Positions 3,957-57,203 of a DNA stretch of 64,000 nt are shown here, in pieces. The DNA lies in NCBI GenBank assembly GCA_000004985.1, contig GG738903.1; one strand, written 5' to 3'. Each line of letters begins with the position of its first letter. Positions within the stretch are counted from its first letter, which is position 1. The position numbers were made by a program, and so were the translations under genes. This DNA is from Naegleria gruberi. Its lineage: Eukaryota. Under the pieces are notes generated by a model, which was given only the letters and a program-made list of their open reading frames with translations, had not been told where the DNA came from and made no database searches.

Positions 3957-4029
3957 CGCCCACCGTGGGGGTCGAACCCACGACCACAAGGTTAAGAGCC
4001 TTGCGCTCTACCGACTGAGCTAGACGGGC
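3957..4029 (-). tRNA. tRNA-Lys (anticodon CUU)
   Basis: Reverse complement gcccgtctagctcagtcggtagagcgcaaggctCTTaaccttgtggtcgtgggttcgacccccacggtgggcg folds as cloverleaf with T-loop GGTTCGA; identical to copy at 36227..36299. Confidence 0.9.
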
Positions 4030-4148: not shown

Positions 4149-6392
4149 TTACATCAAAGATTTCATATCTACACTTTCTATCACAGATTGTAAACCCTCT
4201 AATTGGTTAGCAACACCTGTCAAGTAAGGTCTCATAGTATATTGTTCAGAATAAATCTTTTGCTTTGAAATATCTTGTAAATAATCACTCCAAGCATTAT
4301 CTGTTAAGAAATCCAACTTTTGTAAAAGTGTAGAAACAGCCTTTTCCAAATTATTCAAGTGAGTATCAAAGAGGAGGAAGCATCTCTCGCGCTCCTTCTT
4401 GATTTTATATTCCTTAGAGTGAATGTTTAGCAGAGAAGCTTTGGTTGAATTACTCTTCTTGTCCTTCTCTGCCAACTCTTCATTAAAGGCACAGAATGCA
4501 TAGACATAAGCTCCGTGAAGATAACGTTTTGCTTCCTTTACCTTCTTTAACATTTCATCAATCCAAAACAAGTGCTTATATGGTACATCAGTGTGCATGT
4601 AAATATCTGCTTTGAATTGTTGAATGTTATTCTTCATGTAGTGATTGAATTTTTCACGTTGTAACCACTGTTTGTGTTCATTCATTTTACCCTCATAGTA
4701 AATGTAGTGATGATAAAGATTCTTTTGGTGAATTTCATTTTTGGTTAAATTCATAGAATGCTCAACAACTCTTTCTTTACATGCTTCAAAATTGTGGGTG
4801 CTCCATTTTCCCTAACCAATGTTAAGATTTTCTATTTTTGAAATTACTTACAAAACATAACCAACAGAATTCATGTCTACACATCGAACAACTATTATTT
4901 TGTTAGGATATTTGAAAAATTATAAAACTTACGTCATGTGATTACAACCACCATTCTTTTCAATTGCCTTCTTGCAATTTGGACAGACTTTTGTGTTACC
5001 TTGAATAAATGCAATAGATGCACCTTCTGACATACCGCTCGATTTACCTTTGAAATCACTCACCTGTTGACAAGTGGAAGGGAAGTGAGGTTCCTTACCA
5101 CATTGGAAGCAAAACCTTTCTCCACAATAGCATTTCACATAGTGAATAGGTTCATCAATAGTTTTCTTAATAGCGCATTTACAACGATTTGATGGACATC
5201 TGGTAACCATAAAGTGATCACTCACATAGGTTTCAATTCTGTTCTCAATAAAACGTCTCTTGATTCTTTCATCATTTTTGAAGAATGAAAAGATAAAATC
5301 TTGGGTCAATGCAGCGTTACAATCCATACAATTGATACGTGTTTGTCCTAAACCTGAAGTTTCCTTAATCTTGACTTCTAAATATGATTTCCAGCAAGCA
5401 TTACAGAATGAATGACCACACATTGGACTCTCAGTCATTGGTACATCATCACAGAAACAAGCAGGACAAGTATTGTCATCATCGTTCGTTTGTTTTTCGC
5501 CTATTGGAATACCACATAATTTGAATACATAATTTTCACCCCTTTCCCAGTAATCGTGCGAAATATTTTCACTTCTCCATCTGTACTGTTTCAACATTGT
5601 AAGAACGATTTGATCTTTTTGAGCTCCTGACCATTGAATCAAATCCTTTGTATGTTGAACTTCTTCATCTTGCTCTCTGATAATATCCATTTCATCAATA
5701 AGAACCTTGTAGTCCTTCTTTTTCTTTTTGTATTGTTCCCACAAATATTCCAGAGTTTCTTCTTCCTTTTTCAAATCGAGGAAGAATTTTGGATCCATTG
5801 CTTTTCTTCTCAATTCTGATTGTAAAGTTTGATTGTGCAACTCTTCCTCTGAGTATTCATAGGCATCTGTCACATCAAGTACAATATGTTCATTATCGTC
5901 ATAGTCAAAGAGATTTTCATCATCTTCTGTTGGATCTCTATAAACTTCCTCTTCTTCCTCCTCTTCCTCTTGATATTCTTCATCATCAATTTCAATATCA
6001 CTTCCATAATCATCAATTTCGACATCTTCATCCTCGGCTATATCACTAGTTTCAACCATTGTTTCCTCCAGTTTAGTTTTCTCATCGACATCGACATTGG
6101 AATTGCCAACTACAGAAGATGAAGATTCTTCAATAATTTCCAACATTTCTTCATCATCATTATCCTTTTTACTATTATCATTGGAAATGTCAATAGTTGC
6201 TCCTTCTGATGTTTTTGGTGCCGATTCTTTTATTGCTTTTTCTTCCTCTTCTTCTTGCATCATGATCAAACGACTAATCGTAGCAGTTTCATCCTTTTCT
6301 TCTTGAAGATAAATCTTCAAAATTTCATCGGGAGTTCTCGATGGAAATAAAGAGTGAAGAGACAAGACTTGTCCTCTTACAATTTCTAACAT
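4149..6392 (-). CDS. Ariadne-family RBR (RING-between-RING) E3 ubiquitin ligase; 3 coding exons approx complement(join(4149..4811,4852..4891,4933..6392))
   Basis: Acidic N-terminal region, RING1 (CPACFCDD..CGHSFCNACW), IBR, RING2 start (CPNCKKAIEKNGGCNHMT), 40-nt micro-exon encoding (T)CSMCRHEFCWLCF, then Ariadne C-terminal domain (GKWSTHNFEAC...MNLTKNEIHQ...); GTAAGT donors at both introns. Confidence 0.8.
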
Positions 6393-15800: not shown

Positions 15801-17429
15801 CATATTTCAATTCAGAAACTTTAATGGTAGATAATACTGGAAGTATTGTTGTTTTCGATTATAACAATCAAATTATTAGAAAGTTAATTCCTCACTGTGA
15901 AACTGGCTATAGTTTGGAACCTGAAACTAATTCTACATGCATTCCAAATTGTTTTGGAATTTATGGAAAAACAATTAATGCTTGTTCTTCACATGGATTT
16001 TGTAAAAGTTTAGATCAATGTGAATGTTATTCTGGTTATTCTGGATCAAATTGCTCAGAATCAATATGCTTTGGTAAGACGGGATCTGGAGCATGTAATG
16101 GCAAAGGAATTTGTGTTTCACCAAATGTTTGTCAGTGCTTGGATGATTATTCAGGTATTGATTGTTCGATACCTAAAACAGTTTTAATTTTAGTTGGAAG
16201 TTTGATTGCTTGTGGCTTGGTTATTGTAATAGTTTTTGTAATTTCTGTTTCAATGGTCTTTGTCTATATTCAAAATCAAAGAAAGAAGAGAGCAATCCTC
16301 ATGACTGACAAATTATTAGACAAGAGATTGCTTATGGATGATTTTGCATCCTATAATTCTTCAATGGGGATCAGTAATAGTGAACTCAATGAAGCAGATT
16401 TTGTTATTCCACTGGAACAGTTGGATATGGATCATCCAATCAAGAGGATTGGTGAAGGTTCTTTTGGAAGAGTATTTTCTACAAAATGGGGAAACCAATT
16501 AGTTGCCGTTAAGGTTGTGGACATGAATGATTTTGACATGTCGGAGGAAACTTTCAAACAAGAATTTCAAATCTTGTCACGTTTAAGACATCCAAAAATT
16601 GTCTCCTTCTATGGCATTTCATTTTCTCCAACGAAGAGATATATTGTTATGGAGCTTTGTGAACACAGCTTGGAACATGTCATTAGTCAATTGCAGAATC
16701 AAGTTATTCAAATGGATTTACAGGAAAAGATTGATATTCTAATAGATATTATTGAGGGAGTGAATTATTTACATACCTTGACTCCAAAATGCCTTCATAG
16801 AGATTTGAAACCCCTCAATATTCTTGTGAGCTTTCAGAAAGAATACAAATTATGCGATTTTGGTGTTGGAAAGATTTTAAACTCAAAAACTGTCAATTCT
16901 TTGACCAACAATGGTAAGTTTCAATGAAATTGTTCTCAATATTTAATTATATTCACAAAACACAATAGTGGGGACGTGTTACTATATGGCTCCAGAAACT
17001 ACAGGATGTGAAAGTTTACAAGAATCTGAATCAGTTTGTGCTACTTCAATAGATATTTACAGTCTGGCCATTATTTTCTACCAATTATTATTTGAAGTGA
17101 AAGAGCCCTATATTTCATGTCATGATAGAGTTTTGAAAAAGTTGAAAATGAATGAACCACTACAATTGACTAACATGTACCATTTGCATAGATTAGTGAT
17201 TGAGAAAAACCTCAGACCTATCATTCCATTTTCTTCTGCAAAGGAATGTCAACAATGGTGTCAGGAATATCTATCACCAACAGATGCCAAATATCATAGC
17301 ATTTTCTATGAGATTTGTCAATTAACTAAACTATGTTGGGATAAACAACCAAAAACGAGACCAAGTGCAAAAACTATTTTAGAACGACTCCATGGTTGGA
17401 AGAAAGAAATTGAAACAAAGTATTACTAA
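12806..17429 (+). CDS. Receptor-like protein kinase: signal peptide, NHL repeats, tenascin-type EGF repeats, TM helix, protein kinase domain (about 6 exons)
   Basis: Exons approx 12806..13333, 13381..13529, 13620..15344, 15387..15774, 15811..16914, 16969..17429 with GTAAGT/GTACGT donors. Encodes the signal peptide MKKVFGSYHCQLLVLLAFCMCFVQS. NHL units repeated >10 times (e.g. SDSNNHRIRVIDIQTGLISTLAGNG). EGF-like CECYSGYSGSNCSESICFG..CQCLDDYSGIDCS. TM segment LILVGSLIACGLVIVIVFVISVSMVFVYI. Kinase motifs GEGSFGRV, VAVK, HRDLKPLNILV, DFGVGK, YMAPE. Confidence 0.8.
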
Positions 17430-17513: not shown

Positions 17514-18727
17514 AGGCAGTAGATACTTGTATAACTTTGCACTTTTCAAAAACTCTTTTGAATGCCAAATAGTTGGATTGATCTTTTCCATCTTCCAAAA
17601 TAGCAAACACAATACTCTTAAAACTATTTGGAAATTCCTGAGTTATTACTTCATAAAACAATTTAGCCATATGATTTTCTGAAATAAATTGAATTCAATA
17701 AAACAAATAATTAAATAATTAACTTACCTGGATTCTTGTATGCTCCACATCCAAAAGCACTCAACACAATACTCAAATGTCCATTATTAAGAGCTGCATA
17801 AAGAATTCCTCTAATTTTCTGTCTTGTTCCTTCCTCAAACTTGCTCGTCATCATGAGTTGATTTGTCTTTTTATCTAAAAAGGTATTTGGTCTAATGAAA
17901 GCACTTGCTGCAATGATTGAAATTTCCAATGGTTGATCCAAATATTCGAAAGCACTTCCTTCTCCGTGTCTTAATAATTGAACATTGGGTGAGTAAATGA
18001 TATCATAATCAGAAAGTGGATAGAACTGATCTGGGCCAATAACTGAAACTATTTGTTGATCAGGGGAAGGTTTCTTACAATTTGGATTAAACTTTTTGAA
18101 AATATCATTTGGATCTAATAGAGAATAAATGTAATTTGTTGATCTGAAGAGAGCTTCTTCTTGACTTTTCTGTCCAGTTTCAAAACCTCCACCAGCTCTC
18201 TTCTTACTTGCCATATTTAGCACAACTGGATTCATTCCATTTTTGTGTAATTTGAAAATAGTTTCAACACAATCTTCCTTAATTACTTCAATGGTAGTAG
18301 CAAATTGTTGATTAGTAGAGGTGGAATTGAAGACAATCTTCTCAATTTCATTAAATTGATATAACTTATTCTTTGCCAATTGTTGCTCATAAATTTCTTT
18401 ATCCAAGTTTCTAATAGAAACTTTCTCCTTCTTTGAATTATAATAAAACCCTCTCTGTAATGACAACATTGTATCCTTCATGACATAAATCCTCATTCCC
18501 TTCAATGCATCTGGATTATTCTCATTCAAATATCGTTGATGCCACTTTCTAAAAACAACCGAATTAAAAACTGGTGATTGTAACAATAATTTATCCGCAT
18601 TTTCTTGAATTTGATTATAGCTCTGATCAAGAGGATCCGATAAATCAATAGATTGTTGCTGATTTCCCTTTGGATTATTTGCTGATTTATCATCCGATGA
18701 TTTTCCTGGTTTCTTGTTTTTTACCAT
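17514..18727 (-). CDS. Microbial-type poly(ADP-ribose) glycohydrolase (DUF2263/TIGR02452 family); approx complement(join(17514..17678,17728..18727))
   Basis: PARG signature GGG-X7-QEE present (KKRAGGGFETGQKSQEEALFR); C-terminal SAFGCGAYKNPG then, after a 49-nt GTAAGT intron, ...IVFAILEDGKDQSNYLAFKRVF typical of this family; probable start MVKNKKPGKSS. Confidence 0.7.
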
Positions 18728-18991
18728 TTTTTTTTTATTTTTTTTTAAAGTTTTAATTTTTTCAAATTGGAAATTGAAATTTAGCCAAGTTTTAATTTTC
18801 AAATTCAAATTTAACTTCAAGGCAACTTCCTGGAGTAAAATCCAAATTTCACAGGAAAGAATAAACCCTATTATATTCATATTGCCATTTCGAATAATAT
18901 TAACTCCTAACATTTTACAATAAATTAATATGACCAATAATACGATAGAATCAAGTAGATCAATAATCTATTTAAACGAAAGTGAAATAAT

Positions 18992-21947
18992 TTATTCTCT
19001 CCTATATTTAATCAAATATTCAGGATAGCATTGATATCTATCATAGACAATAAATTCTCTATATGAAGAATTAGAACTATTCGATTGACCAATCACTGAA
19101 TCATACACTCTTCTGTTGGATCCATTAATCTCTGGTGGTCTTCTCTGATTTGTCATTCCCATAGGTGTATAATAGATCTGTCTTCCCAACACAACCCTAC
19201 ACAAAAACATGTAATACTCGCCATTAGTATCTGGAGTAGAATATTGATCTGATTTGGAACAATATTCAGCAAAGTATACTCCAGCTCCAAAGAGACCAGC
19301 TAAACTGGCAACTCTTTCATCAAATCCGTGCTCTGAAATGGTATTCACATATTCATGTTTGGTACCATGCCACAAATACTTTTCATTCATTGATGTGTTC
19401 AATCCAGTTGACTTGAGCCATTCAAAAGCAGGAGATTTCAATGTTGTGAAATTTTCAGTTTGGACTTGAATGGGATTGAGTGGATCTTGATAAGAAGAAA
19501 TGTGATTTTCTCGTATCTTGTAGGCACTGTAAAGGGAAGGATTTTCAATTCTGTAAACACTTGATATGACTAGTTTCGAATATTTCATTTTGTAGAGTTG
19601 ATCTCTTCCTGATCCAAGTGTTTTCGAGTTAGAAGAAACATTCATTATTTCTTGTATAATATCTTTCAATTGACTTGTTACATCAACAGTGTTGTATCTG
19701 TCTGCAAATCTATTAAAACTATTTCGTTTCCAATAACGAGGCAACCCAATATTCAATTGTTTCGACTTGTTTTCAATCATTTCCTTCTCCATCTTTTCAA
19801 GTTTCTTTTCCTTTCTCTTCAACCTTTCCACTTGTTTTGATAATTCCTCTCTTTCCTTTGAACTTTCTCTTGATAATTGTTTCTTCTTCTGTTCTAGTTC
19901 TTTAATTTTCTGCTCGAGCTCAGCATGTTCATTTGTCATGTTAAGTTTCAAATTATTCAATTGTTGCTCATATTCTTTCAATTGTTTTGACTGGTTTTCA
20001 ATGAATTTAACTTGATCTTGAAGTTTCCTTTCGTTCAATGGTTCAAATAAATCATTTTCTTCAATTTCATCAAAACTTGGATCTGAAAGCAGGTCTATTT
20101 TAAATCCTAATCCTTCAAGTTGAATGAATTTAGTTTTGAGCTCTCTCAATTGTTCGTAAATATTCCTCCATTCTTCTTGATATTTAGGAACCTGACTCTC
20201 CTTCTTTCTTAGTTTGTTTTCAAACTTTAAGATTTCCATTTCTGGCATATTTCCCTTCTTGGCGATTTCTAATGCACTTTTGATTCCTTCAATATCTAAG
20301 GTATTCATTTTACTTCTCAATGTTGTCTTTCTAATAAGTAAATTGGTCAATTGAGAGCTCAACTGAGGATAATTATTCATAACTTCAACTTGGCTTTGCA
20401 ACTCTTCAAACTTTTCAATGATAAATGGTATTCTATCTTGAATGAACATTTCACATGTAGAATATTGAATATAATAATCATGAAATAAATGAAAAATTGT
20501 AATCTGAATTTCTTTTGGAATTAAATTTTTAAAATTTGCAGAAATGTCATCCAAGTACTTTCTTTCCTGTTCTAAATTTTCCATAGCATTACCCAAGCTG
20601 GATGATAATTCAGTATTACTAATTCCAACAGAGGAAATTAAAGAAAAAGTAATGTTTTGTAATTGTTTTGTAACGAGCTCCAATCCTATTTTTGAATTTC
20701 GTTCAAAATTCGTTCCTGATACTATTTTACCCAAAGCATTTCCAATATAGTTTGGAATTTCTTCCGTATTTTTTACATAAACAGCTTCATTATTTTGTGA
20801 ATAAATTTCGTTTAAATAGTTTCCAATAAATTCTTTCAATTTTTCTAATTTTTCTTCCAATAATTGCATGTAACTATTGAGATTTATCAAGTAACTATCC
20901 AAATTAATTGCTTCTACCACCGATCCAATATAATATAGTAAACTATTAACATGCTCAATGTGTTCTCTAATTCCAATATCCAAAACTAAATTTGGTAAAT
21001 TTTCATTAATAAAATTGTGACATGTTGATATTTGTCCCTTCATAATAAAATATCCCTCTTGAATAGATTGATGAATGAATAGCTCTTTAGATTGAAAAAT
21101 TACTTTTTCAATCGTTTCTGATAATAGAGTTCTTTGTTTGGAAACTCTTTCATTTAAGGAACATAATTCCATAAATGATTGATTAGTAATTTCATGTTGT
21201 TGTTTTCTTTCTTTTCTTATTTTTTCATTTTCTAAACTTAAACTCTCGATCTTTCTTTCTTCTTTAATTATTCTTCTTTCTTCAGGAAGAATAACACCAT
21301 AATGAATAGCTTTCGAATAGTTTCTATTATTGGAAGTAGAAACTCTATTGCTCTTTTGAGTATTTTGAATTTCAATCTGATTATTCTTCATATCTTCCAT
21401 AATTTTACCAATAGGCTCTCCATTTACTTTCAAACGATAATCAATTTCTAAATCTTCCACTTTTAGTAATAACTTTACAATTTCCAGCTGATTTTTCTGG
21501 CAAGCAGAATGGAGGGGTGTCTAATTGACTTGATTTAATAAGAATTTACAATGAAAACTTACAAAAACAAGGTTCGGATCAGTTCCTGGCTACCATAATC
21601 CTCCAATTAATCCACAATTTTTTTTATCAAAACTTACCATCTATTAAACTATTTAATAATTTACAACATCAATATTAAACACTTACAAACTATTACAAAA
21701 TACTCAACAACCACAACACACCAACAAATCAACTTACGCCAATATTAACATTAATCCCATCACACTCCAATAACAATTTTACAATTTCAACATGTCCATT
21801 CCGACACGCAACAGATAACAAAGTTCTGTTATTTAAAATATCGTCCGAATATTTGTTAACTTGTTGAGGATTGAAGAAAGTTTTAAAATCAGAAACGTTG
21901 CCAATTTCTGCTGCTTTGAACGCTTTTTTGAAATCGTATCTGGACAT
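18992..21947 (-). CDS. Tankyrase-like poly(ADP-ribose) polymerase: N-terminal ankyrin repeats, long coiled-coil region, C-terminal PARP catalytic domain; approx complement(join(18992..21520,21738..21947))
   Basis: ANK repeats LLSVACRNGHVEIVKLLLECDGINVNIG / TPLHSACQKNQLEIVKLLL joined across a 217-nt intron; catalytic domain LWHGT..GFDERVASLAGLFGAGVYFAEYCSKSDQY..LCRVVLGR..YREFIVYD..CYPEYLIKY closely follows tankyrase catalytic-domain motifs (H, Y and E of H-Y-E triad all present); 5' end may extend (ORF open to 22013). Confidence 0.7.
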
Positions 21948-28435: not shown

Positions 28436-28515
28436 AACCTCATCAAATAAATAATTCACACACACGATGATCATCTTCCATCATGAAATGGATTGCATTG
28501 AATTAATTGCTTACA

Positions 28516-30498
28516 ATGAAAAAAAATATCACGACAAGCAACATGTCAGTTGTGCTTCTTCCTGAAATCCTTGGTGAAGTGTTCACTTTTTTACCCTATC
28601 GTTTATTATTTAATACAATCAGGAGAGTTTGTAAAGAATGGAATCACTTGATCACTGATGGTTCTTCCATCCGAAACAGTTCATTGAAAATTGTTTCTCT
28701 CTGTTTTATGAAAGAGGAGAGAAGACAAGCCTTCTGGGAATGTTGCAAAGCAGGCTACTTTAATAAGAGTATTGAAGAGTTGATTATCCGATTGCCAAAA
28801 GAAATGATGTGGAATCAGACAGAGAAGGAAATATTGGATTCCGATGATAATTCACTGTTACACTATTTTCAGAGTGTTAAAAGTTTGTCCTTGAGAGATT
28901 CTAAAATTTATTCTGATAATTTTGGTATGATGTTGGAGAATTGCAAATCAGCTGCAACTCTTGAGGGTATTACAGAGTTGAGTGTTGAAAATAATGGATT
29001 GAATAATCTTGATATTAATTTAATTGCTGAAAAACTTCCTAATTTAACACATATTGATATTTCATCCAATCCTATTAATGAAGGTGGCTTGGATGTATTG
29101 CTGACCAATCAAAAGTTAAAGACAATTTTTGCAGGTGTAAACGAAATTGAAGATGAAACAGATTTGGACAAGATGAAATGCACACAAATTGAAGAGTTAA
29201 CTATTAGTAATACTGATTTTGGAGATAGATATTTGGAACTTTTATTTGATCATAAGAAGAATAGAGATTTATTGAAGAATATGAAGGAGTTAGATTTGAT
29301 GGATACGTTGCCGTCCGATGTTGGATTGTCGTACATGAAAAACTATCCATATCCAACAAATATCACCTTCCTTAATTTGGAATATAATGAGCTGTTGCCA
29401 GAAACTCTTGCCATTATCACCCAGAGCCAAGCTCTATCCAATTTGAAGACTCTATTACTTCCAAATGGATCTATTCTTTCTGAGGGGTTTAGCTTGATTA
29501 CAAAATGCCCTTTTTTCAAAAATGTCACTAAATTGGATGTTAGTAATAACACAATTGGAGATGAGGGATTTATTCACTTTGGAACAGAAAATTTCACTCT
29601 CAAAAACCTAATTCATTTCAAATGCAATACTAACACAGTTGGTTATGAAGGATATCAACATTTTTTCAAGGAACCTTCTCTTTCAGGACTACAAAAGCTT
29701 AAGATTGCAGATACCAACTTTGATGATGACTCTGTGAGTGAATTGGCGTCTGCAAATTTGGCTTCCTTGAAAGTTCTTGATTTTGTAGGAAATATTATAA
29801 CTGATAAGGGATTTGAAACTCTTTCTCAACTCAAGGCACCAAAATTGGAAAAAATTTTATGTGGAGGTTCCAATGCAACTTCCTACAAGGGAGCAATTTA
29901 CTTTTTGGAGAATTGCTCTCTGCCAAATCTCAAATATTTGGATATTGATTTTTATGAAGAGTACAAGGAAGAAAATAAGGAAATTCTTGATGGTCCAGAA
30001 GTTGTTGAATTAGTAAAGGCCAATTCATTAAAAGTTGCCAAGGTATTAGTGCAAAGATTTCCAAGATTGAATGGTATTAAATATGACTCATATATCAGTG
30101 TTGAGATATTGAAAGTATTCCTTGATGGATTATCAGAACTGATTTCATTGTGTATTCAGGTTAATTTTATAGATGATGATCACATTATTTTACTGACCAG
30201 CCATCCACAGGCTGCCAAATTAGAAAAGCTTTACCTTTCAGATAATAAGATTACAGATGTTGGAGCTAAACTCATTTCTGAATGCGCACAGTTCAAGAAT
30301 TTACTAGAGCTTTCATGTGAAGATAATTTATTTACAGATGAAGGATGGAAGTTAATATTTTCAAGTAGAAATTTAATGTCCCTCACAAAATTATTTACAG
30401 ATTTCAATGAGAATGATATAGTTGACTGTGAATTATTGAATATTGATTATATATCGGCTTCTGATAAAGATCTCTATGAAGATGCTGAAGAAGAGTAA
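28516..30498 (+). CDS. F-box-like / RNI-type leucine-rich repeat protein
   Basis: N-terminus LLPEILGEVFTFLPYRLLFNTIRRVCKEWNHLI (F-box-like) followed by many ~28-aa LRRs (L..LDIS.N.IGDEG...L). Confidence 0.6.
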   Translation: MKKNITTSNMSVVLLPEILGEVFTFLPYRLLFNTIRRVCKEWNHLITDGSSIRNSSLKIVSLCFMKEERRQAFWECCKAGYFNKSIEELIIRLPKEMMWNQTEKEILDSDDNSLLHYFQSVKSLSLRDSKIYSDNFGMMLENCKSAATLEGITELSVENNGLNNLDINLIAEKLPNLTHIDISSNPINEGGLDVLLTNQKLKTIFAGVNEIEDETDLDKMKCTQIEELTISNTDFGDRYLELLFDHKKNRDLLKNMKELDLMDTLPSDVGLSYMKNYPYPTNITFLNLEYNELLPETLAIITQSQALSNLKTLLLPNGSILSEGFSLITKCPFFKNVTKLDVSNNTIGDEGFIHFGTENFTLKNLIHFKCNTNTVGYEGYQHFFKEPSLSGLQKLKIADTNFDDDSVSELASANLASLKVLDFVGNIITDKGFETLSQLKAPKLEKILCGGSNATSYKGAIYFLENCSLPNLKYLDIDFYEEYKEENKEILDGPEVVELVKANSLKVAKVLVQRFPRLNGIKYDSYISVEILKVFLDGLSELISLCIQVNFIDDDHIILLTSHPQAAKLEKLYLSDNKITDVGAKLISECAQFKNLLELSCEDNLFTDEGWKLIFSSRNLMSLTKLFTDFNENDIVDCELLNIDYISASDKDLYEDAEEE

Positions 30499-31668: not shown

Positions 31669-32111
31669 TTGATTTGTTTTTTTTTGGTTTCTTGCTGTTG
31701 TAAATCTAAACCATTTCTGTTTTTGAAGAATCTGCTGCGTGAGCACTAATGTTGGCTTGAAAATGATGGAAAATATGTGCGTTTCATCTTCGAACCAATT
31801 GAAGTGCTCACTCAATATTCAATACAATGACAATACCCTACAGACAGGGTACTCCGGATTGCCCCATGCATTTTTAAAATTAGCCAAACTCCAAGGCAGT
31901 GTTGTGGTAGTTGACTCAATTATGCCTGAAAACCTTTTCTCAAGAATTTCCACCGTGTCGTTGTATTGGATAGGAATCAATCTAAATTTACTGTGGTTCA
32001 ATTTAATTGGTTTCAGGAAGAAAATATTTCATCAATGCGCAATACCATAAAATATTCTTTGAATATTTCAATTGAGTGTTGGTGATATGAAAATGCAATC
32101 CTCCAAAATTC

Positions 32112-33068
32112 TCAAATGCATAAAGATCGCTCTGCTGAACTATTCTCCAAATCACTCTTAGTTGTAAGGAGAATTACTTCTGGATTGATGGCATGAGTAC
32201 GAAATTCCTCCTTTTTGTAATCAAACACGTGCTTTACATTACTGGAATAAGGATTTCCTAATAGTAAGATTGTTGAAGTAGCTCTATAAAAGGTGAATGG
32301 AATGTGTAAAACTCTCTCACCAGAGTAACTATCCCACAATTCCAGCTTTAACTTTGTTTCTTGGCCAATGTTGAATTGCTTAACTGCAAAATCAATTCCA
32401 ATTGGAGGTAGAATGAATGGATTTAAGGAAACAGGTGAATCTTTCATGGCACACTCGTGAAATGAGGTTTTTCCTGATTTATGTTCTCCATCCAATAAAA
32501 CTTTGACCATTTGGGGAGAATTCTTTGGTGGGATAGAAGAAGCAATAGCATCAACTGTGTTGCTTTCTGATGAAGAAGTTTTGAAGAATCCAAGAAAACT
32601 GTCGAATAATCCTGTTTTTGACTTTTCCTTTTTTGATTTACTTTTCGAATCTTGATACTCATTGAAAAAACCTTTCAATATTACTAATTCTTCATCTACC
32701 CAACTGTCATCAACAGAAATTATTTTAGAATCTCCAGAAATTATTGCAATTTTTGCTAATTTACATGCAAATTCATAAACTTGCCTTCTCAACAAATACT
32801 TGATGAACTTCCTTGCCCGAAAATCAGAAGATAGCAACAACTGATCCAACTCTTTAAATCCCGAACATTTTAATTTAAATTTTCTAATTAATATTTCATA
32901 TTCTTTCCAAATTAATTCAATAGATTTTCCTCTCCACTTTTTACACACTCTCCCAAATATGAAAAACAATTCCACACTATTGAAAAAATGTAATACTTCT
33001 CCGATTATCATATCATTAGGCAATTCATGAAAAAGAGTGGAGTAAGAAATTGTTTTGCATGTTTCCAT
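32112..33068 (-). CDS. F-box-like domain fused to a Rab-like small GTPase domain with degenerate G3/G4 motifs
   Basis: N-terminus LFHELPNDMIIGEVLHFFNSVELFFIFGRVCKKWR (F-box-like). C-terminal half begins with G1 GEHKSGKTS. It continues PPIGIDFAVKQF..KLKLELWDSYSGERV (cf. Rab PTIGVDF...KLQIWDTAGQERF), then YRATSTILLLGNPYSS. It ends with ILLTTKSDL (cf. LLVGNKCDL). Confidence 0.5.
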   Translation of the reverse strand: METCKTISYSTLFHELPNDMIIGEVLHFFNSVELFFIFGRVCKKWRGKSIELIWKEYEILIRKFKLKCSGFKELDQLLLSSDFRARKFIKYLLRRQVYEFACKLAKIAIISGDSKIISVDDSWVDEELVILKGFFNEYQDSKSKSKKEKSKTGLFDSFLGFFKTSSSESNTVDAIASSIPPKNSPQMVKVLLDGEHKSGKTSFHECAMKDSPVSLNPFILPPIGIDFAVKQFNIGQETKLKLELWDSYSGERVLHIPFTFYRATSTILLLGNPYSSNVKHVFDYKKEEFRTHAINPEVILLTTKSDLENSSAERSLCI

Positions 33069-33198
33069 TTTTTTTGTAAACTTTGCAAAACTTTGAAATC
33101 TCTAACATGTCATAGGAAAGTTGAAATAGAAATATCAAAGAAATTGACATTTCATGCTACTTTACATTCTCGTAAATTGTCCAAATAACAAGAGCCAT

Positions 33199-33570
33199 TC
33201 AATTATTCATACTTTTATCAAATTTGAGATTCATCAGATCAGTGGAAGAGCACAATATTCTAAAGAACTTTCCAGACAAGAAATACTTTGGAAAGGTAAT
33301 CCATTGCTCAATGAATATTCTCTTAATAAAATCCCATGGACCTGTAAATGGTTCTGGCTTATTTGTTTCCAACTTGTGTCCAATGTTTTGCATGCCCATG
33401 GCTATGGCCATAATGGGAAAACCAATAATTGAAAGAAATGGTTGAATAAAAAAGAGGACAATGGTCAGAATGGAGCCAACCATGAATAGTGGAACAAAAA
33501 ACAAGTGCAATAGCAAATTAATTTTGGAAGAGTGGCGACTTTGATAAACATTCAGAGGGTTTTGAGTCAT
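33199..33570 (-). CDS. Small multi-pass membrane protein, possibly DUF962/Mpo1-like; 3' end probably spliced
   Basis: Hydrophobic segments LLLHLFFVPLFMVGSILTIVLFFI and IIGFPIMAIAMGMQNIGHKLETNKPEP (GH..E..KP motif resembles DUF962); weak. Confidence 0.3.
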   Translation of the reverse strand: MTQNPLNVYQSRHSSKINLLLHLFFVPLFMVGSILTIVLFFIQPFLSIIGFPIMAIAMGMQNIGHKLETNKPEPFTGPWDFIKRIFIEQWITFPKYFLSGKFFRILCSSTDLMNLKFDKSMNN

Positions 33571-33859
33571 TTTCTTGTTGTTTCGAATTGTTTCGAATAG
33601 ATTAGTTTGGATTGAGTTAGTTAAAGTATTGGAAATGTCCTATTGTTCCAATAGTACTCTTCCTTGGTCAGATTCTAATTGAGTCGGTTTTTTGCGGATA
33701 ATCTTCCATGACCTGTGGATTTTGATATCTCAACCAAAACTCCTTTCGAAATAGATTTTGAAATGGAAGATTTTCCTTGTGAACAATTGGCTCAATTCTT
33801 CCTTAATGTTTCAGTTGGTTTCGTTTCTATAATTCGAAAGTGAGAATTTTTGAAATAAT

Positions 33860-34918
33860 TTAATTATAATTGATATCACACAATGTAAATTCTGTTTCTT
33901 CTTTGAATCCACTTCGTACATACACTCCATTTGAGGTTGGATTTGATGAATCGGCAGTCAGAAACATCCACTTGAATAATTGATTTCCACCTTCTTCCTT
34001 TCTTTCGAATAATTGCATTGACATGGATTGAATGAGAAATGAGGCAATACCTCTTCCTCTATATTCTTCCTCTGTGAATACATGAGTAATTCTACATGCA
34101 CTTGGAATTGGAGTGGCCAAAGCAATGGCAATAGGATTCGAATTTCCTTTCATGGTAACATAGAAGGTATTTCCTTTCTGGGATGGTCTAAGCAACATAT
34201 TTTCGAGAATAAATTGTTCTGATGGCACTATTGCTGGAAAACAAATCTTACAAAATCTGTGAATCATATTGGCACAGTGTTTGGTTAGATTTTCATTGGT
34301 TGTGTCCAAAAATTTGAGTTCGTAATTTGTTTCCTTAGGTGGAAGTGTTAAATGATCTCTAATGAGTGAGTAGGACATCATCTTTACCTGAATTTTGTAA
34401 GAAGGAGAAGGATTCATACCAGGATCAAAATTTGAAACGTATTCCTCACATAGAAATAAACTTTCCTCAGTTGACCAGAATCCAGTCAACTTTCTGTCAA
34501 ACTTTTTAACGATTTCTTCAAATTGATCAAAGGATAATACATCACTATTGTTGGAAATTCTCAAATTCCGATAATCAACTGAACAAAACATTTTTAAAAC
34601 TCCTCTTGCAACTATTTTTCTAGTTTCCAATAATTGTTTCTCATCTGGAAAACTAAACACCATCAATTGTGGTGGAAACCAAGTCACGACTCTTTCAATT
34701 TCTCCCTTCTGATGTACAACCATAAGGAATCTCCTATCTATTGTAAATCTTTCCGGATTGTCAACCATGGATTTCATCAAACCAATTTGATAATTATTAC
34801 TTGCAGAATTTTCAAGAAGAAACGCAAGACAATCATTATAGAATTTCAAGGTATCTGTGTAGAATGTGATGGTGTGAGAGTTTTCATCAATGGAAGGTAA
34901 GGAATAAGTTATTGACAT
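33860..34918 (-). CDS. GNAT-family N-acetyltransferase domain protein
   Basis: C-terminal region ...RITHVFTEEEYRGRGIASFLIQSMSMQLFE... contains GNAT motif A (R/Q-x-x-G-x-G/A). Confidence 0.5.
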   Translation of the reverse strand: MSITYSLPSIDENSHTITFYTDTLKFYNDCLAFLLENSASNNYQIGLMKSMVDNPERFTIDRRFLMVVHQKGEIERVVTWFPPQLMVFSFPDEKQLLETRKIVARGVLKMFCSVDYRNLRISNNSDVLSFDQFEEIVKKFDRKLTGFWSTEESLFLCEEYVSNFDPGMNPSPSYKIQVKMMSYSLIRDHLTLPPKETNYELKFLDTTNENLTKHCANMIHRFCKICFPAIVPSEQFILENMLLRPSQKGNTFYVTMKGNSNPIAIALATPIPSACRITHVFTEEEYRGRGIASFLIQSMSMQLFERKEEGGNQLFKWMFLTADSSNPTSNGVYVRSGFKEETEFTLCDINYN

Positions 34919-35376
34919 TTTTTTTTAAAGAGTTTTCACAAAGATTACAATAAAAAAAGGCAATTACCATCAACTTGTGTAACAATTATAGAAAATCCGT
35001 ACTATTTGTTGAAATCTTATTGAATAGCAGTATTAGTAATTAAATTATTCCAATTTTTTTGTAATTTAGAACTTCCCAATTTTGCTCCAAGCTCGATTTT
35101 CTTGAAAAACCACCACCACGTGTAAACCTCCTTTTGATACTTGTCCAATTCCTGTTTGTTATTGTATAAATGGTATTCCTTAATTCTGGATTAATATGAT
35201 AAGGTGTTCTTTGTGTGAAATAATTTTTCAATGGATGATTGACTTAACCAGAAAAAAGACAAAACAAATCCTCAGGAATAGGAATTGAGCCATATTTATT
35301 ACAAAAGTTTACAATAGTGTTCAAAATAATTCTAAAGTTGTTTAGATTTTTCAAAAAAATAGATCAAAAAAAAACA

Positions 35377-36226: not shown

Positions 36227-36299
36227 GCCCGTCTAGCTCAGTCGGTAGAGCGCAAGGCTCTTAACCTTGTGGTCGTGGGTTCGACCCCCACGGTGGGCG
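36227..36299 (+). tRNA. tRNA-Lys (anticodon CUU), second identical copy
   Basis: gcccgtctagctcagtcggtagagcgcaaggctCTTaaccttgtggtcgtgggttcgacccccacggtgggcg. Confidence 0.9.
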
Positions 36300-36386: not shown

Positions 36387-37058
36387 TTAAAAGAAACCCC
36401 ATGCTTTGAATTGTCTTGAAATTCTTTTGCATGCTTCCATAACTTGTGGTTTCAAATCTTTGGAAAGATCTTTTGGATTATCCAAGAATGCAAATGGAAC
36501 AGCATTTGTAACTTTATCCACAAATTGCTTCTCTGACATTGACTCTGTGAAATGTGTTAAAACAATCATTGGATTGAAAGGAAGCCCCTTTACATCTGTT
36601 TCTTTAACAGCATTTTGGAATTTGACAAATTTTTGTAAAGAAACAGAATTCCATTCACAAGCTCTACAAACAAAAATAACTGCGTCAATTCTATTATCGA
36701 GGTCAATCTTGTTTGTCAAGTAATTTTCCACTAAATTAGTTCCGGTCTTGATTCCTTGCAAGATTAATTTTAAGGTATTCAAGTCGTCTGGATTTTCGAA
36801 TGGTTTACCAGCAGAATCAAACAACAACAAGTTGGCAGACGAAACTGGAACACTTTCGTAAAGTAAGGTACCAACTTCTGCCTTTCTTCCAACATCACAT
36901 GTTTCAACCATGATATTTGGATTGAAAAATTTGAGGAGAGTGTTGATGAAGGATGATTTACCTGAATGTGGATCACCAACCACAAGAATTTTGAGAGGAA
37001 GGTTTGGGAGAGTTGTTAAAGACATTTTTTGTTGAACCAAATTGAAACGTGATGTCAC
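36387..37058 (-). CDS. IRG/IIGP-like (p47 immunity-related-GTPase-like) P-loop GTPase, G-domain only (223 aa)
   Basis: P-loop VVGDPHSGKSSFINTLLKF closely resembles IIGP1 GETGSGKSSFINTLRG (from memory); DxxG LLFDSAGKPF; tandem paralog of next gene. Confidence 0.5.
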   Translation of the reverse strand: MTSRFNLVQQKMSLTTLPNLPLKILVVGDPHSGKSSFINTLLKFFNPNIMVETCDVGRKAEVGTLLYESVPVSSANLLLFDSAGKPFENPDDLNTLKLILQGIKTGTNLVENYLTNKIDLDNRIDAVIFVCRACEWNSVSLQKFVKFQNAVKETDVKGLPFNPMIVLTHFTESMSEKQFVDKVTNAVPFAFLDNPKDLSKDLKPQVMEACKRISRQFKAWGFF

Positions 37059-37211: not shown

Positions 37212-37962
37212 CTATCTACGCTTTGTAAGAACCTCTGCACTGACAACAAGGAACACAAATCCAACTACATTTTCTTTAACAATTTCTGAATTCATCCATT
37301 CAGAAAGTGACAAGTTTACACCTGTTGGCAATCCATGAATTAACTTTTGAATTTGATTCACATCATTTCCATCCATTCCCTTTTCGAATGGTTTACCAGC
37401 AGTATCAAAGATGTGATATTCATGACCATTAGAGGAACCGAGATGAACTTTTTCATAGTGAACTGTGCCAACATCTGCCTTTCGTCCAACATCACAACTT
37501 GCAACTTGGATTCGTCTATTGAAATATTTACACAATGTGTTGATTGTTGAGGATTTTCCAGAGTGTTGAGGTCCAAGCACAAGAATGTTGGTAGACTTTT
37601 TGTTAGGATTATATTTCATGTTTTCAACCTCAATTTTTTGTAACATCAAGTCAATGATTTTGTTCTTTTCTGATGGAATGTCAGTTTCCAAGTTGATATG
37701 ATTTTCAAAAAAGAAAATTCTATTTTCATGGATAAGGTTAGACAGAGATTCCTTTAATTCAATTCTTGTTGAGCTGGGGATTTTTTCATGGTTTGTAATA
37801 ATGACCAAAGGTTTTTGTTCTGATAAAGTTGAAATACGAATGTGGAAGAAACTTACTGAGTGATGATTTTTTTTCGAGCCATTGGTAAAGATTTCCAATA
37901 TTAATAACAGCGTCTGTGTCTATGACAATAGATGGACCAAAGAAAAATTCGAACAAACCCAT
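37212..37962 (-). CDS. IRG/IIGP-like P-loop GTPase, tandem paralog; probable 40-nt intron near 5' end (start MGLFEFFFGPS... at 37962)
   Basis: P-loop LVLGPQHSGKSSTINTLCKYF, DxxG IFDTAGKPFEK; ~45-50% identity by eye to 36387..37058 product. Confidence 0.5.
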
Positions 37963-43860: not shown

Positions 43861-44690
43861 TGTTATATATTAGTTAGTTAATAAGAAGTTATTGTTATGT
43901 AATAGTTTACAATAATGGTGTAGTGGTGTGTTGGAGTGAATATTAATTAGTTTAATATTCAATAGATATATAGTACAGAGTAAATATGATACAAGTATGT
44001 GTGTGTTCCCGAAACAATAAAAAGATAGAATGAAAAAACCAATATCGAACACTTCTGATGTTGTTGTTTAGTTTTTTTCTCTTATTGTTTGCTAATGTTT
44101 TAAACAACAGTTAAAAGTTTAAATCCGAGAGATGATGGATTTCAATGGGATTTGGATGGATAACTCTCTAAACCAAGATCTGAGGTAATGGGTTGAATGA
44201 TGGATATTGTATTGATGGAGGATGGTTTAATAATGGGTTGGCTGATAGTGTTGCTAGTGCTGATGATGATGATGTACTGTTTTTGTTGTTGGATTTGGTT
44301 GAAACTGTTCAGAAAGGTCCTGAGATGGCAGTTGTGTGTTGTATTATGATGAGATGTTGAGTTATTGTTTTGTGTTGTTATGCTTGATTTTGTGATGATG
44401 GCAATTGGCATTGGAGAGATACTGAATGTTGATCAATTCCAGTTCATACACAAGAGCATAACAATTGTTGTCATGTTGTTGTTGTGGAAAGGAACGTGTG
44501 TTAGGAGGTTTCGGTAAATTGTTGAAGATTGTTATTGTGGAAAGTCTACTATTTAGAAACAAACATTTCTTGTTAAAACTGAGACAGTTGTAATCATCTC
44601 CTTCCATATGAATGGCAATCTCGCGTTTTTTAAAAAGTGGATGCACCCAACAAATATGGTAAGGAAATTCGTAAGAAAGAAAAAAAGTAG

Positions 44691-44763
44691 TGGAGATGCG
44701 GGGTATCGATCCCCGTACCTCTTCCATGCTAAAGAAGCGCTCTACCATGTGAGCTACATCCCC
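44691..44763 (-). tRNA. tRNA-Ala (anticodon AGC)
   Basis: Reverse complement ggggatgtagctcacatggtagagcgcttctttAGCatggaagaggtacggggatcgataccccgcatctccac; G3:U70 pair present. Confidence 0.85.
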
Positions 44764-55678: not shown

Positions 55679-57203
55679 ATGTCCAAACATGCAATGCTCA
55701 CAAATTATGGACACAAGCTGTGCAGTTTATTCACCAAAGGATCCCAATTGCAATTCCTTTTGATCAAACGACCACAATTCAGCGACGACAATCGTGGTTT
55801 TGCAATTCAACAAAATGACGACCTGAAAGGACACCGAAAGATTACCATAGAATCAAATTTTCCAGTCGGTGGACGAATGAATAAATCATTGGAGGAGAAT
55901 TATCATGTATTGGGTGGTGCTGATAGTGGTGGTGATGGTCAAGGATTGAAATTCCTTACTCAATCATTGGATGCTTTTGAAAAATGTTATCAAGTGGTCA
56001 ATCGGATGAGTTTGGAAAAGAATGATGAAAGAGTTGAGGTACAAAAAGTGAGCTATCTTTTGGGAAGATCACAAGTTGGGTTGTACATGATAAGGGACTT
56101 GATGAGGGATGGATTGACGACTGAAGAGTTTGAGTCTTCACATGAGTTATATTTGGATAATCTACCAAAAATTGGAATATCTATTGATGGTAAAGATGTT
56201 TCAAAGCTTGATTCGCCATCGATGAGACATGCACTATGGTTATGGCATTTGGAAAGGTTGATTTCCTTTGGTGACAATTTCACAAGGGAGAAACTAATTG
56301 CATTGTTCTATCTCATTATTCACACAATGTGGAATAGAGAACCAACTTACTCTCTTCATTACATGAGGTTATTTACTAATGAATATTCAAAGACGAAGAA
56401 GTTGTACACTAGCATATTGGGAGATTCATTGACGAACACGTGGTCTCAAGTTTTGGGCAGAATTTTCACAGAAAATGAATTTGATAATTTCAATGATTTG
56501 GATAGTGAGCTTCCTGTAAACCTTAAAAGTATGTATCATATATTCTCTGCGTTTATTTCATTTGCAGACAGTGAAAGCATTCCTGTCGACACTTATTTAA
56601 GAGCTTTGGATAAAGAGCAAGTGAATAATCCACTCAACACATACATTCCATTTATGAAAGTAATGATGGAAGATCAATTTGAAGACATTGAAACTGTATT
56701 GAAAATAATGGAGAAATCACCAATAACTAATCATCAAGCTAATGAAAAGAGATATGGAAAGTGGTGGACTATTTTTGAGTGAAAAGCATGAAAATATTGA
56801 GAGAATTAAGGATTTTAAATTCTATCCAGTTCTTTATTGGAAAGCTTGTGCTGTCAGTGAGCCATCATCTGATCGAGATTTGTCAGATATGAGAAATTTT
56901 GTAAAGCAACTTGAATTCTTCTCTGGAATGCCATCTCATTGTAAATTGTTAAATCTCAAAATAATGGATGAATATAATCATGGAAATTATGAACGAGTTT
57001 TGGAAATATTCAACTTCTCTGAAAAGCATTTCCATTCCCAAATCAAAATGGATGATGATTACTGTTCCACTTTTTATGGATGCCAAGCTTTACATAAATT
57101 AGGAAGAAAAGAAGAAGCACTTTCAATAATTCAAAAGAAAGTAACAAGATACGGTTCAATAGAAACATCATTTCATGAGTTGTTTTCAATTGTTAATAAA
57201 TAA
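55679..57203 (+). CDS. Hypothetical protein; two overlapping ORFs (55679..56782, 56742..57203) probably one gene with frame discontinuity
   Basis: ORFs overlap by 41 nt in different frames; no recognisable domains. Confidence 0.3.

Follow-up and report, generated by a model that had tools for sequence, protein, structure and literature searches.

Rab-like GTPases with N-terminal F-boxes have been described in Naegleria by Herman et al. 2021 (BMC Biol 19:142, PMC8296547; Additional file 4, Suppl. Material 4), as clades that are restricted to the genus and were studied in N. gruberi and N. fowleri. The authors reported "birth-and-death" evolution of these clades, with disrupting mutations in some of the members, and proposed "GTPase-dependent ubiquitination" (PMC8296547). 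Here, we describe one locus in a 64,000-nt stretch of N. gruberi contig GG738903.1 (the window), where an open reading frame (ORF) on the minus strand at 32112-33068 joins an F-box homolog to a Rab-derived G domain and, judged by homology along its whole length, is a member of the published family. In the reference assembly the reading frame is broken after the G4 motif of the G domain, and we lean towards the view that this copy is a very recently inactivated paralog or a null allele.

The original prediction, made from the sequence of the window, had presented the fusion as an unusual architecture. However, the architecture, its restriction to Naegleria, and the expansion and decay of the family were already published in 2021, including the exact 318-residue gene model, which is the corrected model XP_002671737.1 (marked with an asterisk) in Table S8 of Herman et al. 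2021 (PMC8296547). In that table the locus is listed as "Rab", the columns "Additional domain(s)" and "putative pseudogene?" are blank, and an "F-box" is flagged for XP_002677004.1, XP_002670359.1, XP_002674580.1 and XP_002675157.1 (asterisked except for the first). The family and the locus are the same as in the published study. Two unflagged features are added here, namely homology to the F-box, with a one-residue insertion, and a frameshift that truncates the ORF, past which the remaining part of the G domain can be recovered from the +1 frame. The published 318-residue model is C-terminally truncated, and the locus merits both an "F-box" and a "putative pseudogene" flag.

Canonical Rabs (Rab3, Sec4/Rab8, Rab1 and Rab11) gave the best sequence and structure matches, and the P-loop, RabF1 (IGIDF) and RabF2 (KLELW) are all present in the ORF. 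Unlike the canonical Rabs, the family lacks C-terminal CC, CXC or CaaX prenylation cysteines, the catalytic Gln is replaced (by Pro in most members and by Gly at this locus), NKxD is replaced by TKxD and SAK by TNT, and the protein studied here has an N-terminal extension of about 185 residues. The locus has also lost the switch-I Thr and the G3 Gly, and its domain is truncated. Both the loss of the Gln and the TKxD variant are found across the family and are no peculiarity of this gene.

TbFRP, a FYVE-F-box-Ras-like GTPase protein of Euglenozoa (PMC3593210), likewise carries an F-box N-terminal to a Rab-related GTPase in a single polypeptide, and its lineage, within the discobans, is related to Heterolobosea. 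The likeness is one of domain architecture. TbFRP has an N-terminal FYVE domain that binds phosphatidylinositol 3-phosphate, whereas Pfam gave no FYVE match in the ORF or in 18 family members. The role of the TbFRP F-box was likewise unresolved, and the authors found no N. gruberi ortholog (PMC3593210). Rab-like effectors of Legionella (bioRxiv 10.1101/350777) also combine a Rab domain with an F-box or U-box in a single protein, and were presumably taken up from protist hosts. Unlike the Naegleria family, they are bacterial, secreted and variable in domain order, and none showed specific similarity to the family among the top HMMER matches. RhoBTB and other BTB-fused small GTPases, which Herman et al. 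2021 mention beside the F-box fusions (PMC8296547), are a parallel in concept, with a small GTPase fused to an adaptor domain of a cullin-RING ligase. However, they have a BTB adaptor (for Cul3) in place of an F-box (for Skp1/Cul1) and a Rho-type G domain, their domains are ordered differently, and there is no homology outside the G domain.

Reading frame of the locus after G4

The ORF was found as predicted, as a single frame running from ATG to TGA, and it consists of an F-box-like N-terminus, a helical linker, a low-complexity spacer and a Rab-like G domain up to G4. All of the motifs that had been quoted for it (GEHKSGKTS, the switch and interswitch region, KLELW, WDSYSGE and TKSD) are present. 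The features, from the ORF list, the sequence and the family alignments, are as follows.

32112-33068, minus strand: F-box–Rab-like ORF, ATG to TGA, 318 residues
32931-33029, minus strand: F-box homolog, residues 14-46, LFHELPNDMIIGEVLHFFNSVELFFIFGRVCKKWR, with a one-residue insertion in helix 1
32640-32822, minus strand: conserved helical linker, residues 83-143
32514-32639, minus strand: Ser/Lys-rich low-complexity spacer, residues 144-185
32151-32504, minus strand: Rab-like G domain, in-frame part, residues 189-306
32463-32489, minus strand: G1, GEHKSGKTS, residues 194-202, an intact P-loop fitting GxxxxGK[ST]
Residues 221-232, minus strand: switch region, PPIGIDFAVKQF
Residues 241-251, minus strand: KLELW and WDSYSGE, overlapping as KLELWDSYSGE, with W245 at 32334-32336
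32151-32162, minus strand: G4, TKSD, residues 303-306, with the guanine-specifying Asp kept
32147-32150, minus strand: approximate frameshift site, from the sequence and the paralog alignment
32112-32114, minus strand: TGA stop codon of the 318-residue ORF
32003-32146, minus strand: out-of-frame remainder of the G domain, RIVQQSDLYAFENFGGLHFHITNTQLKYSKNILWYCALMKYFLPETN followed by a stop, in the +1 frame, comprising alpha4, beta6, the G5 equivalent ITNT (outside the 318-residue ORF) and alpha5
32112-32510, minus strand: public gene model EFC38993.1 / XP_002671737.1 / NAEGRDRAFT_73202, 132 residues

The Rab-like domain is incomplete in the ORF, which stops 12 codons past G4 and ends with ...ERSLCI. 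The final stretch of the G domain, of ~46 residues (YAFENFGGLHFHITNTQ…WYCALMKYFL), is encoded in the +1 frame, and translation of 32003-32170 gave a peptide that reads through this piece to the stop and ends at the usual C-terminus of the family. In alignments, the out-of-frame piece matched the C-terminal end (...QADQFAFENFGGIHLDITNTQLDEPKTIVLYCALLKYLLSP) of P0001, an N. gruberi paralog, as well as every other member of the family, and tblastn of a frame-joined protein also placed it in the +1 frame. This frame is open for 56 codons here, while elsewhere it has a stop about every 16 codons. The domain had been said to align with Rabs along its full length; this holds for residues 189-310, which scored above the Pfam cut-offs, but alpha4, beta6, G5 and alpha5 lie outside the ORF.

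The distance from the Asp codon of G4 to the Ala codon of AFENFGG is 31 nt (3n+1) at this locus and 45-48 nt (15-16 codons) in the closest paralogs. A single deletion of 14 or 17 nt would account for both the shorter loop and the shift of frame. Rescue by an intron was rejected, as only one GT...AG interval would restore the frame, and removal of its 16 nt would also delete the Asp of G4. We favour, with some reserve, a scenario in which a deletion that is not a multiple of three, just past G4, shifted the frame, so that the ORF would now stop 12 codons later without alpha4, beta6, G5 and alpha5. The copy would then be a recently inactivated gene, either a pseudogene or a null allele, in a family with birth-and-death evolution. 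Other lesions at the locus are the insertion in helix 1 of the F-box, a switch-I Thr to Pro change and a G3 Gly to Ser change.

Several observations weigh against inactivation. The frameshift site is known from a single reference assembly, and an indel from sequencing or assembly is the main rival explanation. There is no decay in the segment past the frameshift, and the locus is no outlier at the columns that are conserved in the family, with mismatches at 11 of 66 such columns (family range 2-25). The "putative pseudogene?" entry for the locus in Table S8 is blank (PMC8296547). Because the segment past the frameshift shows no decay and the mismatches at conserved columns are in the middle of the range, an inactivation would have to be very recent.

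The same observations are what would be expected if the frameshift were an artefact of assembly or sequencing, or present in only one haplotype, and the real gene were intact and about 355 residues long. We consider this unlikely, though worth serious attention. The downstream frame is fully open and reaches the normal C-terminus of the family, and conservation downstream is at least as high as upstream, with 50-57% identity to the N. gruberi paralogs for the out-of-frame piece and 33-47% for the upstream parts. The gene would then, with the same limited likelihood, encode a complete F-box, linker and Rab-like domain, presumably an SCF (Skp1–Cul1–F-box) substrate receptor with a non-hydrolysing G domain like its paralogs. 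However, once a one-base error is corrected, the loop between G4 and alpha4 would still fall about 5 residues short of its length in all close paralogs. An artefact would thus call for two events, namely a deletion in frame and an error, where one frameshifting deletion is otherwise enough. The other unique lesions also speak against an artefact, namely the helix 1 insertion, which leaves the F-box below the threshold of the hidden Markov model, and the G3 Gly to Ser change. An identical stop is found in GenBank EFC38993.1, but this is weak evidence since the model derives from the same assembly.

An environmental contig (L001; ENA ERZ929261, k127_56677, 2197 bp) matched the window at ~33070-35250. 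It carries homologs of the neighbouring GNAT and Mpo1-like genes in the same 90%-identity clusters, which indicates that a close relative of N. gruberi was sampled, but it ends about 130 nt short of the ORF and cannot settle the frameshift. A scan of JGI metagenomes with six peptides from the locus found no relative.

Homology of the F-box and of the G domain

Relatives were collected with a two-sequence profile, which was run through HMMER against the full set of 1.84 billion representatives. About a dozen full-length collinear relatives were found, from N. gruberi, N. fowleri, N. lovaniensis and metagenomes, the last contributing several sequences. Among them was EFC44260.1 (P0016), an N. 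gruberi "rab family small GTPase" of 379 residues, with an E-value of 5.7e-95 over positions 10-363. Further N. gruberi paralogs are EFC46014, EFC47972 and EFC43894, and identity between the locus and the N. gruberi paralogs is 37-45%. N. fowleri FDP41_002877 and N. lovaniensis C9374_002756 are both named "F-box domain-containing protein" in UniProt. A word-indexed protein search with the frame-joined protein gave one relative only (P0001) and missed even the identical 132-residue model. Some HMMER matches in multiple stretches scored higher (P0022, P0024 and others) and were rejected, as they are tandem models of canonical Rabs and not related architectures.

The N-terminal consensus of the family reads LPxE(L/I)xxEIxxxLxxx(E/D)LIFxxxxVCKxWR, followed by the linker motifs G(R)xFxKxLLRxxxxExA and WxxxELxxLKxYFxxFxD and a low-complexity spacer that contains GxFxxxxxxxxSxF. 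The G domain then reads, in order, KxLLDGxxGxGKTSFLxC, TIGxDF, QLWDQCGPERFRSITxxYYRGAS, EVILIxTKxD, AFExFxGxLxxEITNT and WYCxLLKYLL before the stop. Motifs that are found family-wide are WDQCGPERFRSIT, TKxD, EITNT and the ...WYCxLLKYLL C-terminus without CC or CaaX. The locus follows this pattern, with the F-box, the LLR helix, W..EL..LK.YF..F.D, the spacer and the Rab-like domain, for which the WYC.LLKYLL end lies in the +1 frame.

The original prediction had placed an F-box-like motif at the N-terminus. In the ORF itself the Pfam F-box (PF00646) scored below the cut-off of 20.5 bits, with 13.1 bits (E = 0.099) for the whole protein and 16.5 bits for the N-terminus alone, but the segment is homologous to N-termini of paralogs that pass the threshold. 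The closest paralogs scored 29.8-33.6 bits. Across 18 family sequences, about 13 of which include the N-terminus, PF00646 was matched by 10 (best 2.6e-7) and PF12937 by 9 (best 4e-7). The F-box segment of the locus has LP at residues 16-17 and VCKKWR at residues 41-46, and differs in helix 1 by an insertion (LPNDMIIGE compared to LPNE-LIGE) that no other member has in the alignment. Removal in silico of M20 or of I21 raised the score from 16.5 to 24.1 and 22.6 bits, respectively, both exceeding the Pfam threshold. An AlphaFold2 model of the 318-residue ORF, built on a 19-sequence family alignment, had a mean predicted local distance difference test (pLDDT) score of 74 and a predicted template modelling (pTM) score of 0.71, and showed helices at residues 18-26, 31-40 and 43-56 in the F-box region.

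When a profile of 11 family N-termini was compared to the PDB, 16 of the 18 matches were F-box proteins, each aligned on its F-box: Dia2 (1.1e-4), FBH1, FBXL17, FBXO44, FBXO6, FBXW7, FBXO42, Skp2, KDM2B, FBXO2 and FBXL2 were among them. The family profile was required for this recognition; a single-sequence search of the PDB with the N-terminus of the locus gave only spurious matches, to a designed repeat protein and a bacterial STING. The homology to threshold-passing paralogs thus identifies the N-terminus as an F-box homolog. The linker was modelled as helices at residues 83-107 and 122-143 (pLDDT 82-91), and the spacer, which differs in length across the family, had pLDDT < 50 at residues 146-178.

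The expected Ras-superfamily domain was confirmed by the Pfam scan, with 33.7 bits for Roc (PF08477, cut-off 27) and 26.8 bits for Ras (PF00071, cut-off 21.6), both over residues 189-310. The Ras score rose to 29.7 bits once the out-of-frame piece was joined to the ORF. All 60 of the matches listed in a PDB sequence search were Rabs, including Rab3D (1.5e-11), Sec4, Rab3A/B/C, Rab7, Rab27, Rab35, Rab11 and Rab1. The top 50 Foldseek matches were also all Rabs, in a search with the whole model, where the G domain dominates the result. As predicted, the G3 motif is altered: in HMMER alignments to Rab3D and Sec4, WDSYSGER stands ungapped opposite WDTAGQER, with Ser for the DxxG glycine and Gly for the catalytic Gln. 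The change of the glycine to Ser was found at this locus alone within the family. Switch I reads PPIGIDF, with Pro for the Thr, which is also lost in XP_002674580 and XP_002678758. At the positions of RabF3-F5 the locus has RVLHIP, FYRATS and LLLGNP, and the paralogs keep RabF3 and RabF4 (ERFRSIT and YYRGAS). Neither the end of the ORF nor that of the restored frame (...KYFLPETN) carries CC, CXC or CaaX, and the paralogs end with ...KYLLSP or similar. By these matches and motifs the C-terminal part is a Rab-derived G domain with degenerate catalytic machinery.

It had been proposed that the locus encodes a GTPase-dead nucleotide-state sensor. Since the frameshift truncates the domain and removes G5 together with the last strand and helix, such a role is doubtful at this locus; the intact paralogs would be candidates for it. 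The 318-residue ORF might still be expressed as it stands, as an F-box protein with a truncated, nucleotide-free pseudo-GTPase through which Rab effectors or regulators would be brought to ubiquitylation, in line with the original prediction. The frame is long and open from the ATG, the P-loop and motifs like RabF1 and RabF2 are intact, and the retained strands were modelled with pLDDT 80-90. However, AlphaFold confidence is no measure of the stability of a truncated domain, and the missing beta6, G5 and C-terminal helix are elements on which core packing depends in all structures of the Ras fold. The F-box is also weakened by the insertion. Homologous sequence for exactly the lost elements is found in the next frame, which points to an accident and not to a protein designed to be shorter, and we consider a functional truncated product improbable. 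In the favoured scenario of recent inactivation, the locus is probably not a working adaptor.

The only annotation of the locus in GenBank is EFC38993.1 (P0017), a "predicted protein" of 132 residues that is identical to residues 187-318 of the ORF. It starts at the internal Met187, shares the stop codon of the ORF and lacks the first 186 residues, which every full-length paralog has conserved; the model is N-terminally truncated. Taken at face value, it would imply two separate genes, or an F-box-like N-terminus that resembles the family by chance and has nothing to do with the Rab-like part, and the Pfam F-box score below threshold would agree with this. However, the ORF is single and uninterrupted, and it is matched from end to end, linker motifs included, by about a dozen collinear homologs found in metagenomes and in three Naegleria species. 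Herman et al. 2021 also corrected the model to 318 residues. We regard two genes or chance similarity as extremely improbable, and the homologs effectively exclude this reading.

Intact members of the family

The AlphaFold2 model of the intact paralog EFC44260.1, from the same 19-sequence alignment, had a pLDDT of 75.7 and a pTM of 0.76. Intact members combine an N-terminal F-box, the conserved helical linker, the low-complexity spacer and a Rab-derived G domain. The F-box is predicted to dock on Skp1/Cul1, and the soluble Rab-like domain could be, within an SCF ubiquitin ligase, the module that binds substrate or that is gated by nucleotide. Judging from their sequences, the probable role of the intact members is that of SCF substrate receptors that bind Skp1 and have a soluble, non-hydrolysing Rab-like domain, and this domain may possibly bind its targets in a nucleotide-dependent manner. 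The family is an attractive putative example of a direct link between small-GTPase domains and cullin-RING ligases, and an intact paralog such as XP_002677004.1 is a better entry point to it than the locus described here.

XP_002674580 and XP_002678758 form a sub-clade with the locus in which the switch-I Thr and/or the G3 Gly are lost. If the locus were live, with either an artefactual frameshift or a truncated product that is put to use, then the three could be nucleotide-independent pseudo-GTPase SCF substrate receptors that mimic the surface of a Rab, which we hold to be quite unlikely. If true, such mimics would bring Rab effectors or regulators to ubiquitylation, and would be a diversifying arm of a candidate "GTPase-gated ubiquitin ligase" system in Naegleria. 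Another relative (P0035, 373 residues) has an F-box of 24.1 bits, above the Pfam threshold, and a C-terminal part without a Ras or Roc match at E <= 0.001 that is still covered by a match to the family profile (positions 269-361), which suggests that in some family members recognisable GTPase character is gone altogether.

Neighbouring genes in the window

Seven neighbouring ORFs matched N. gruberi NEG-M proteins from a 304,373-bp scaffold exactly, including these two:

33199-33570: Mpo1-like, EFC38994.1, exact match
33860-34918: GNAT, EFC38995.1, exact match

A 663-residue ORF at 28507-30498 on the plus strand, 1.6 kb from the F-box–Rab-like ORF, carries an F-box-like segment in its N-terminal part and leucine-rich repeats (LRR_4, 2.4e-14) in its C-terminal part. 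The F-box scored just under threshold with both PF12937 (21.5 bits) and PF00646 (17.2 bits), and was 46% identical to residues 21-46 of the F-box–Rab-like ORF by tblastn. By its domain content this looks like a conventional FBXL-type adaptor. A 487-residue ORF at 4929-6392 on the minus strand is an exact ENA protein and falls in a 90%-identity cluster with EFC38989.1, a 743-residue model of an RBR-type E3 ubiquitin transferase. The gene may extend past the ORF via an intron or an upstream exon.

Two adjacent ORFs of about 225 residues, at 36387-37058 and 37212-37898 on the minus strand, gave weak matches to P-loop GTPases (MMR_HSR1 with 24.2 and 20.7 bits, and also IIGP-like and dynamin_N-like matches). 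The pair may be tandem divergent GTPases, and lies beside the tRNA-Lys(CTT) gene at 36227-36299 on the plus strand. The other two tRNA genes are at 3957-4029 and 44690-44763, both on the minus strand, so that the window has two tRNA-Lys(CTT) and one tRNA-Ala(AGC), the latter of the eukaryotic type with A34. A bacterial or giant-virus origin of the DNA, which its low GC might suggest, was rejected on account of this tRNA and of the exact N. gruberi protein matches. Two apparently duplicated pairs of ORFs (367 + 153 residues, at 15824-17429 and 55679-57203) were compared and were unrelated. On the minus strand, a gene with a microbial-type PARG catalytic domain (17711-18937, 2.2e-31) adjoins one for an 822-residue protein with a C-terminal PARP catalytic domain (18992-21460, 4.1e-23), which together make a writer and eraser pair for ADP-ribosylation.

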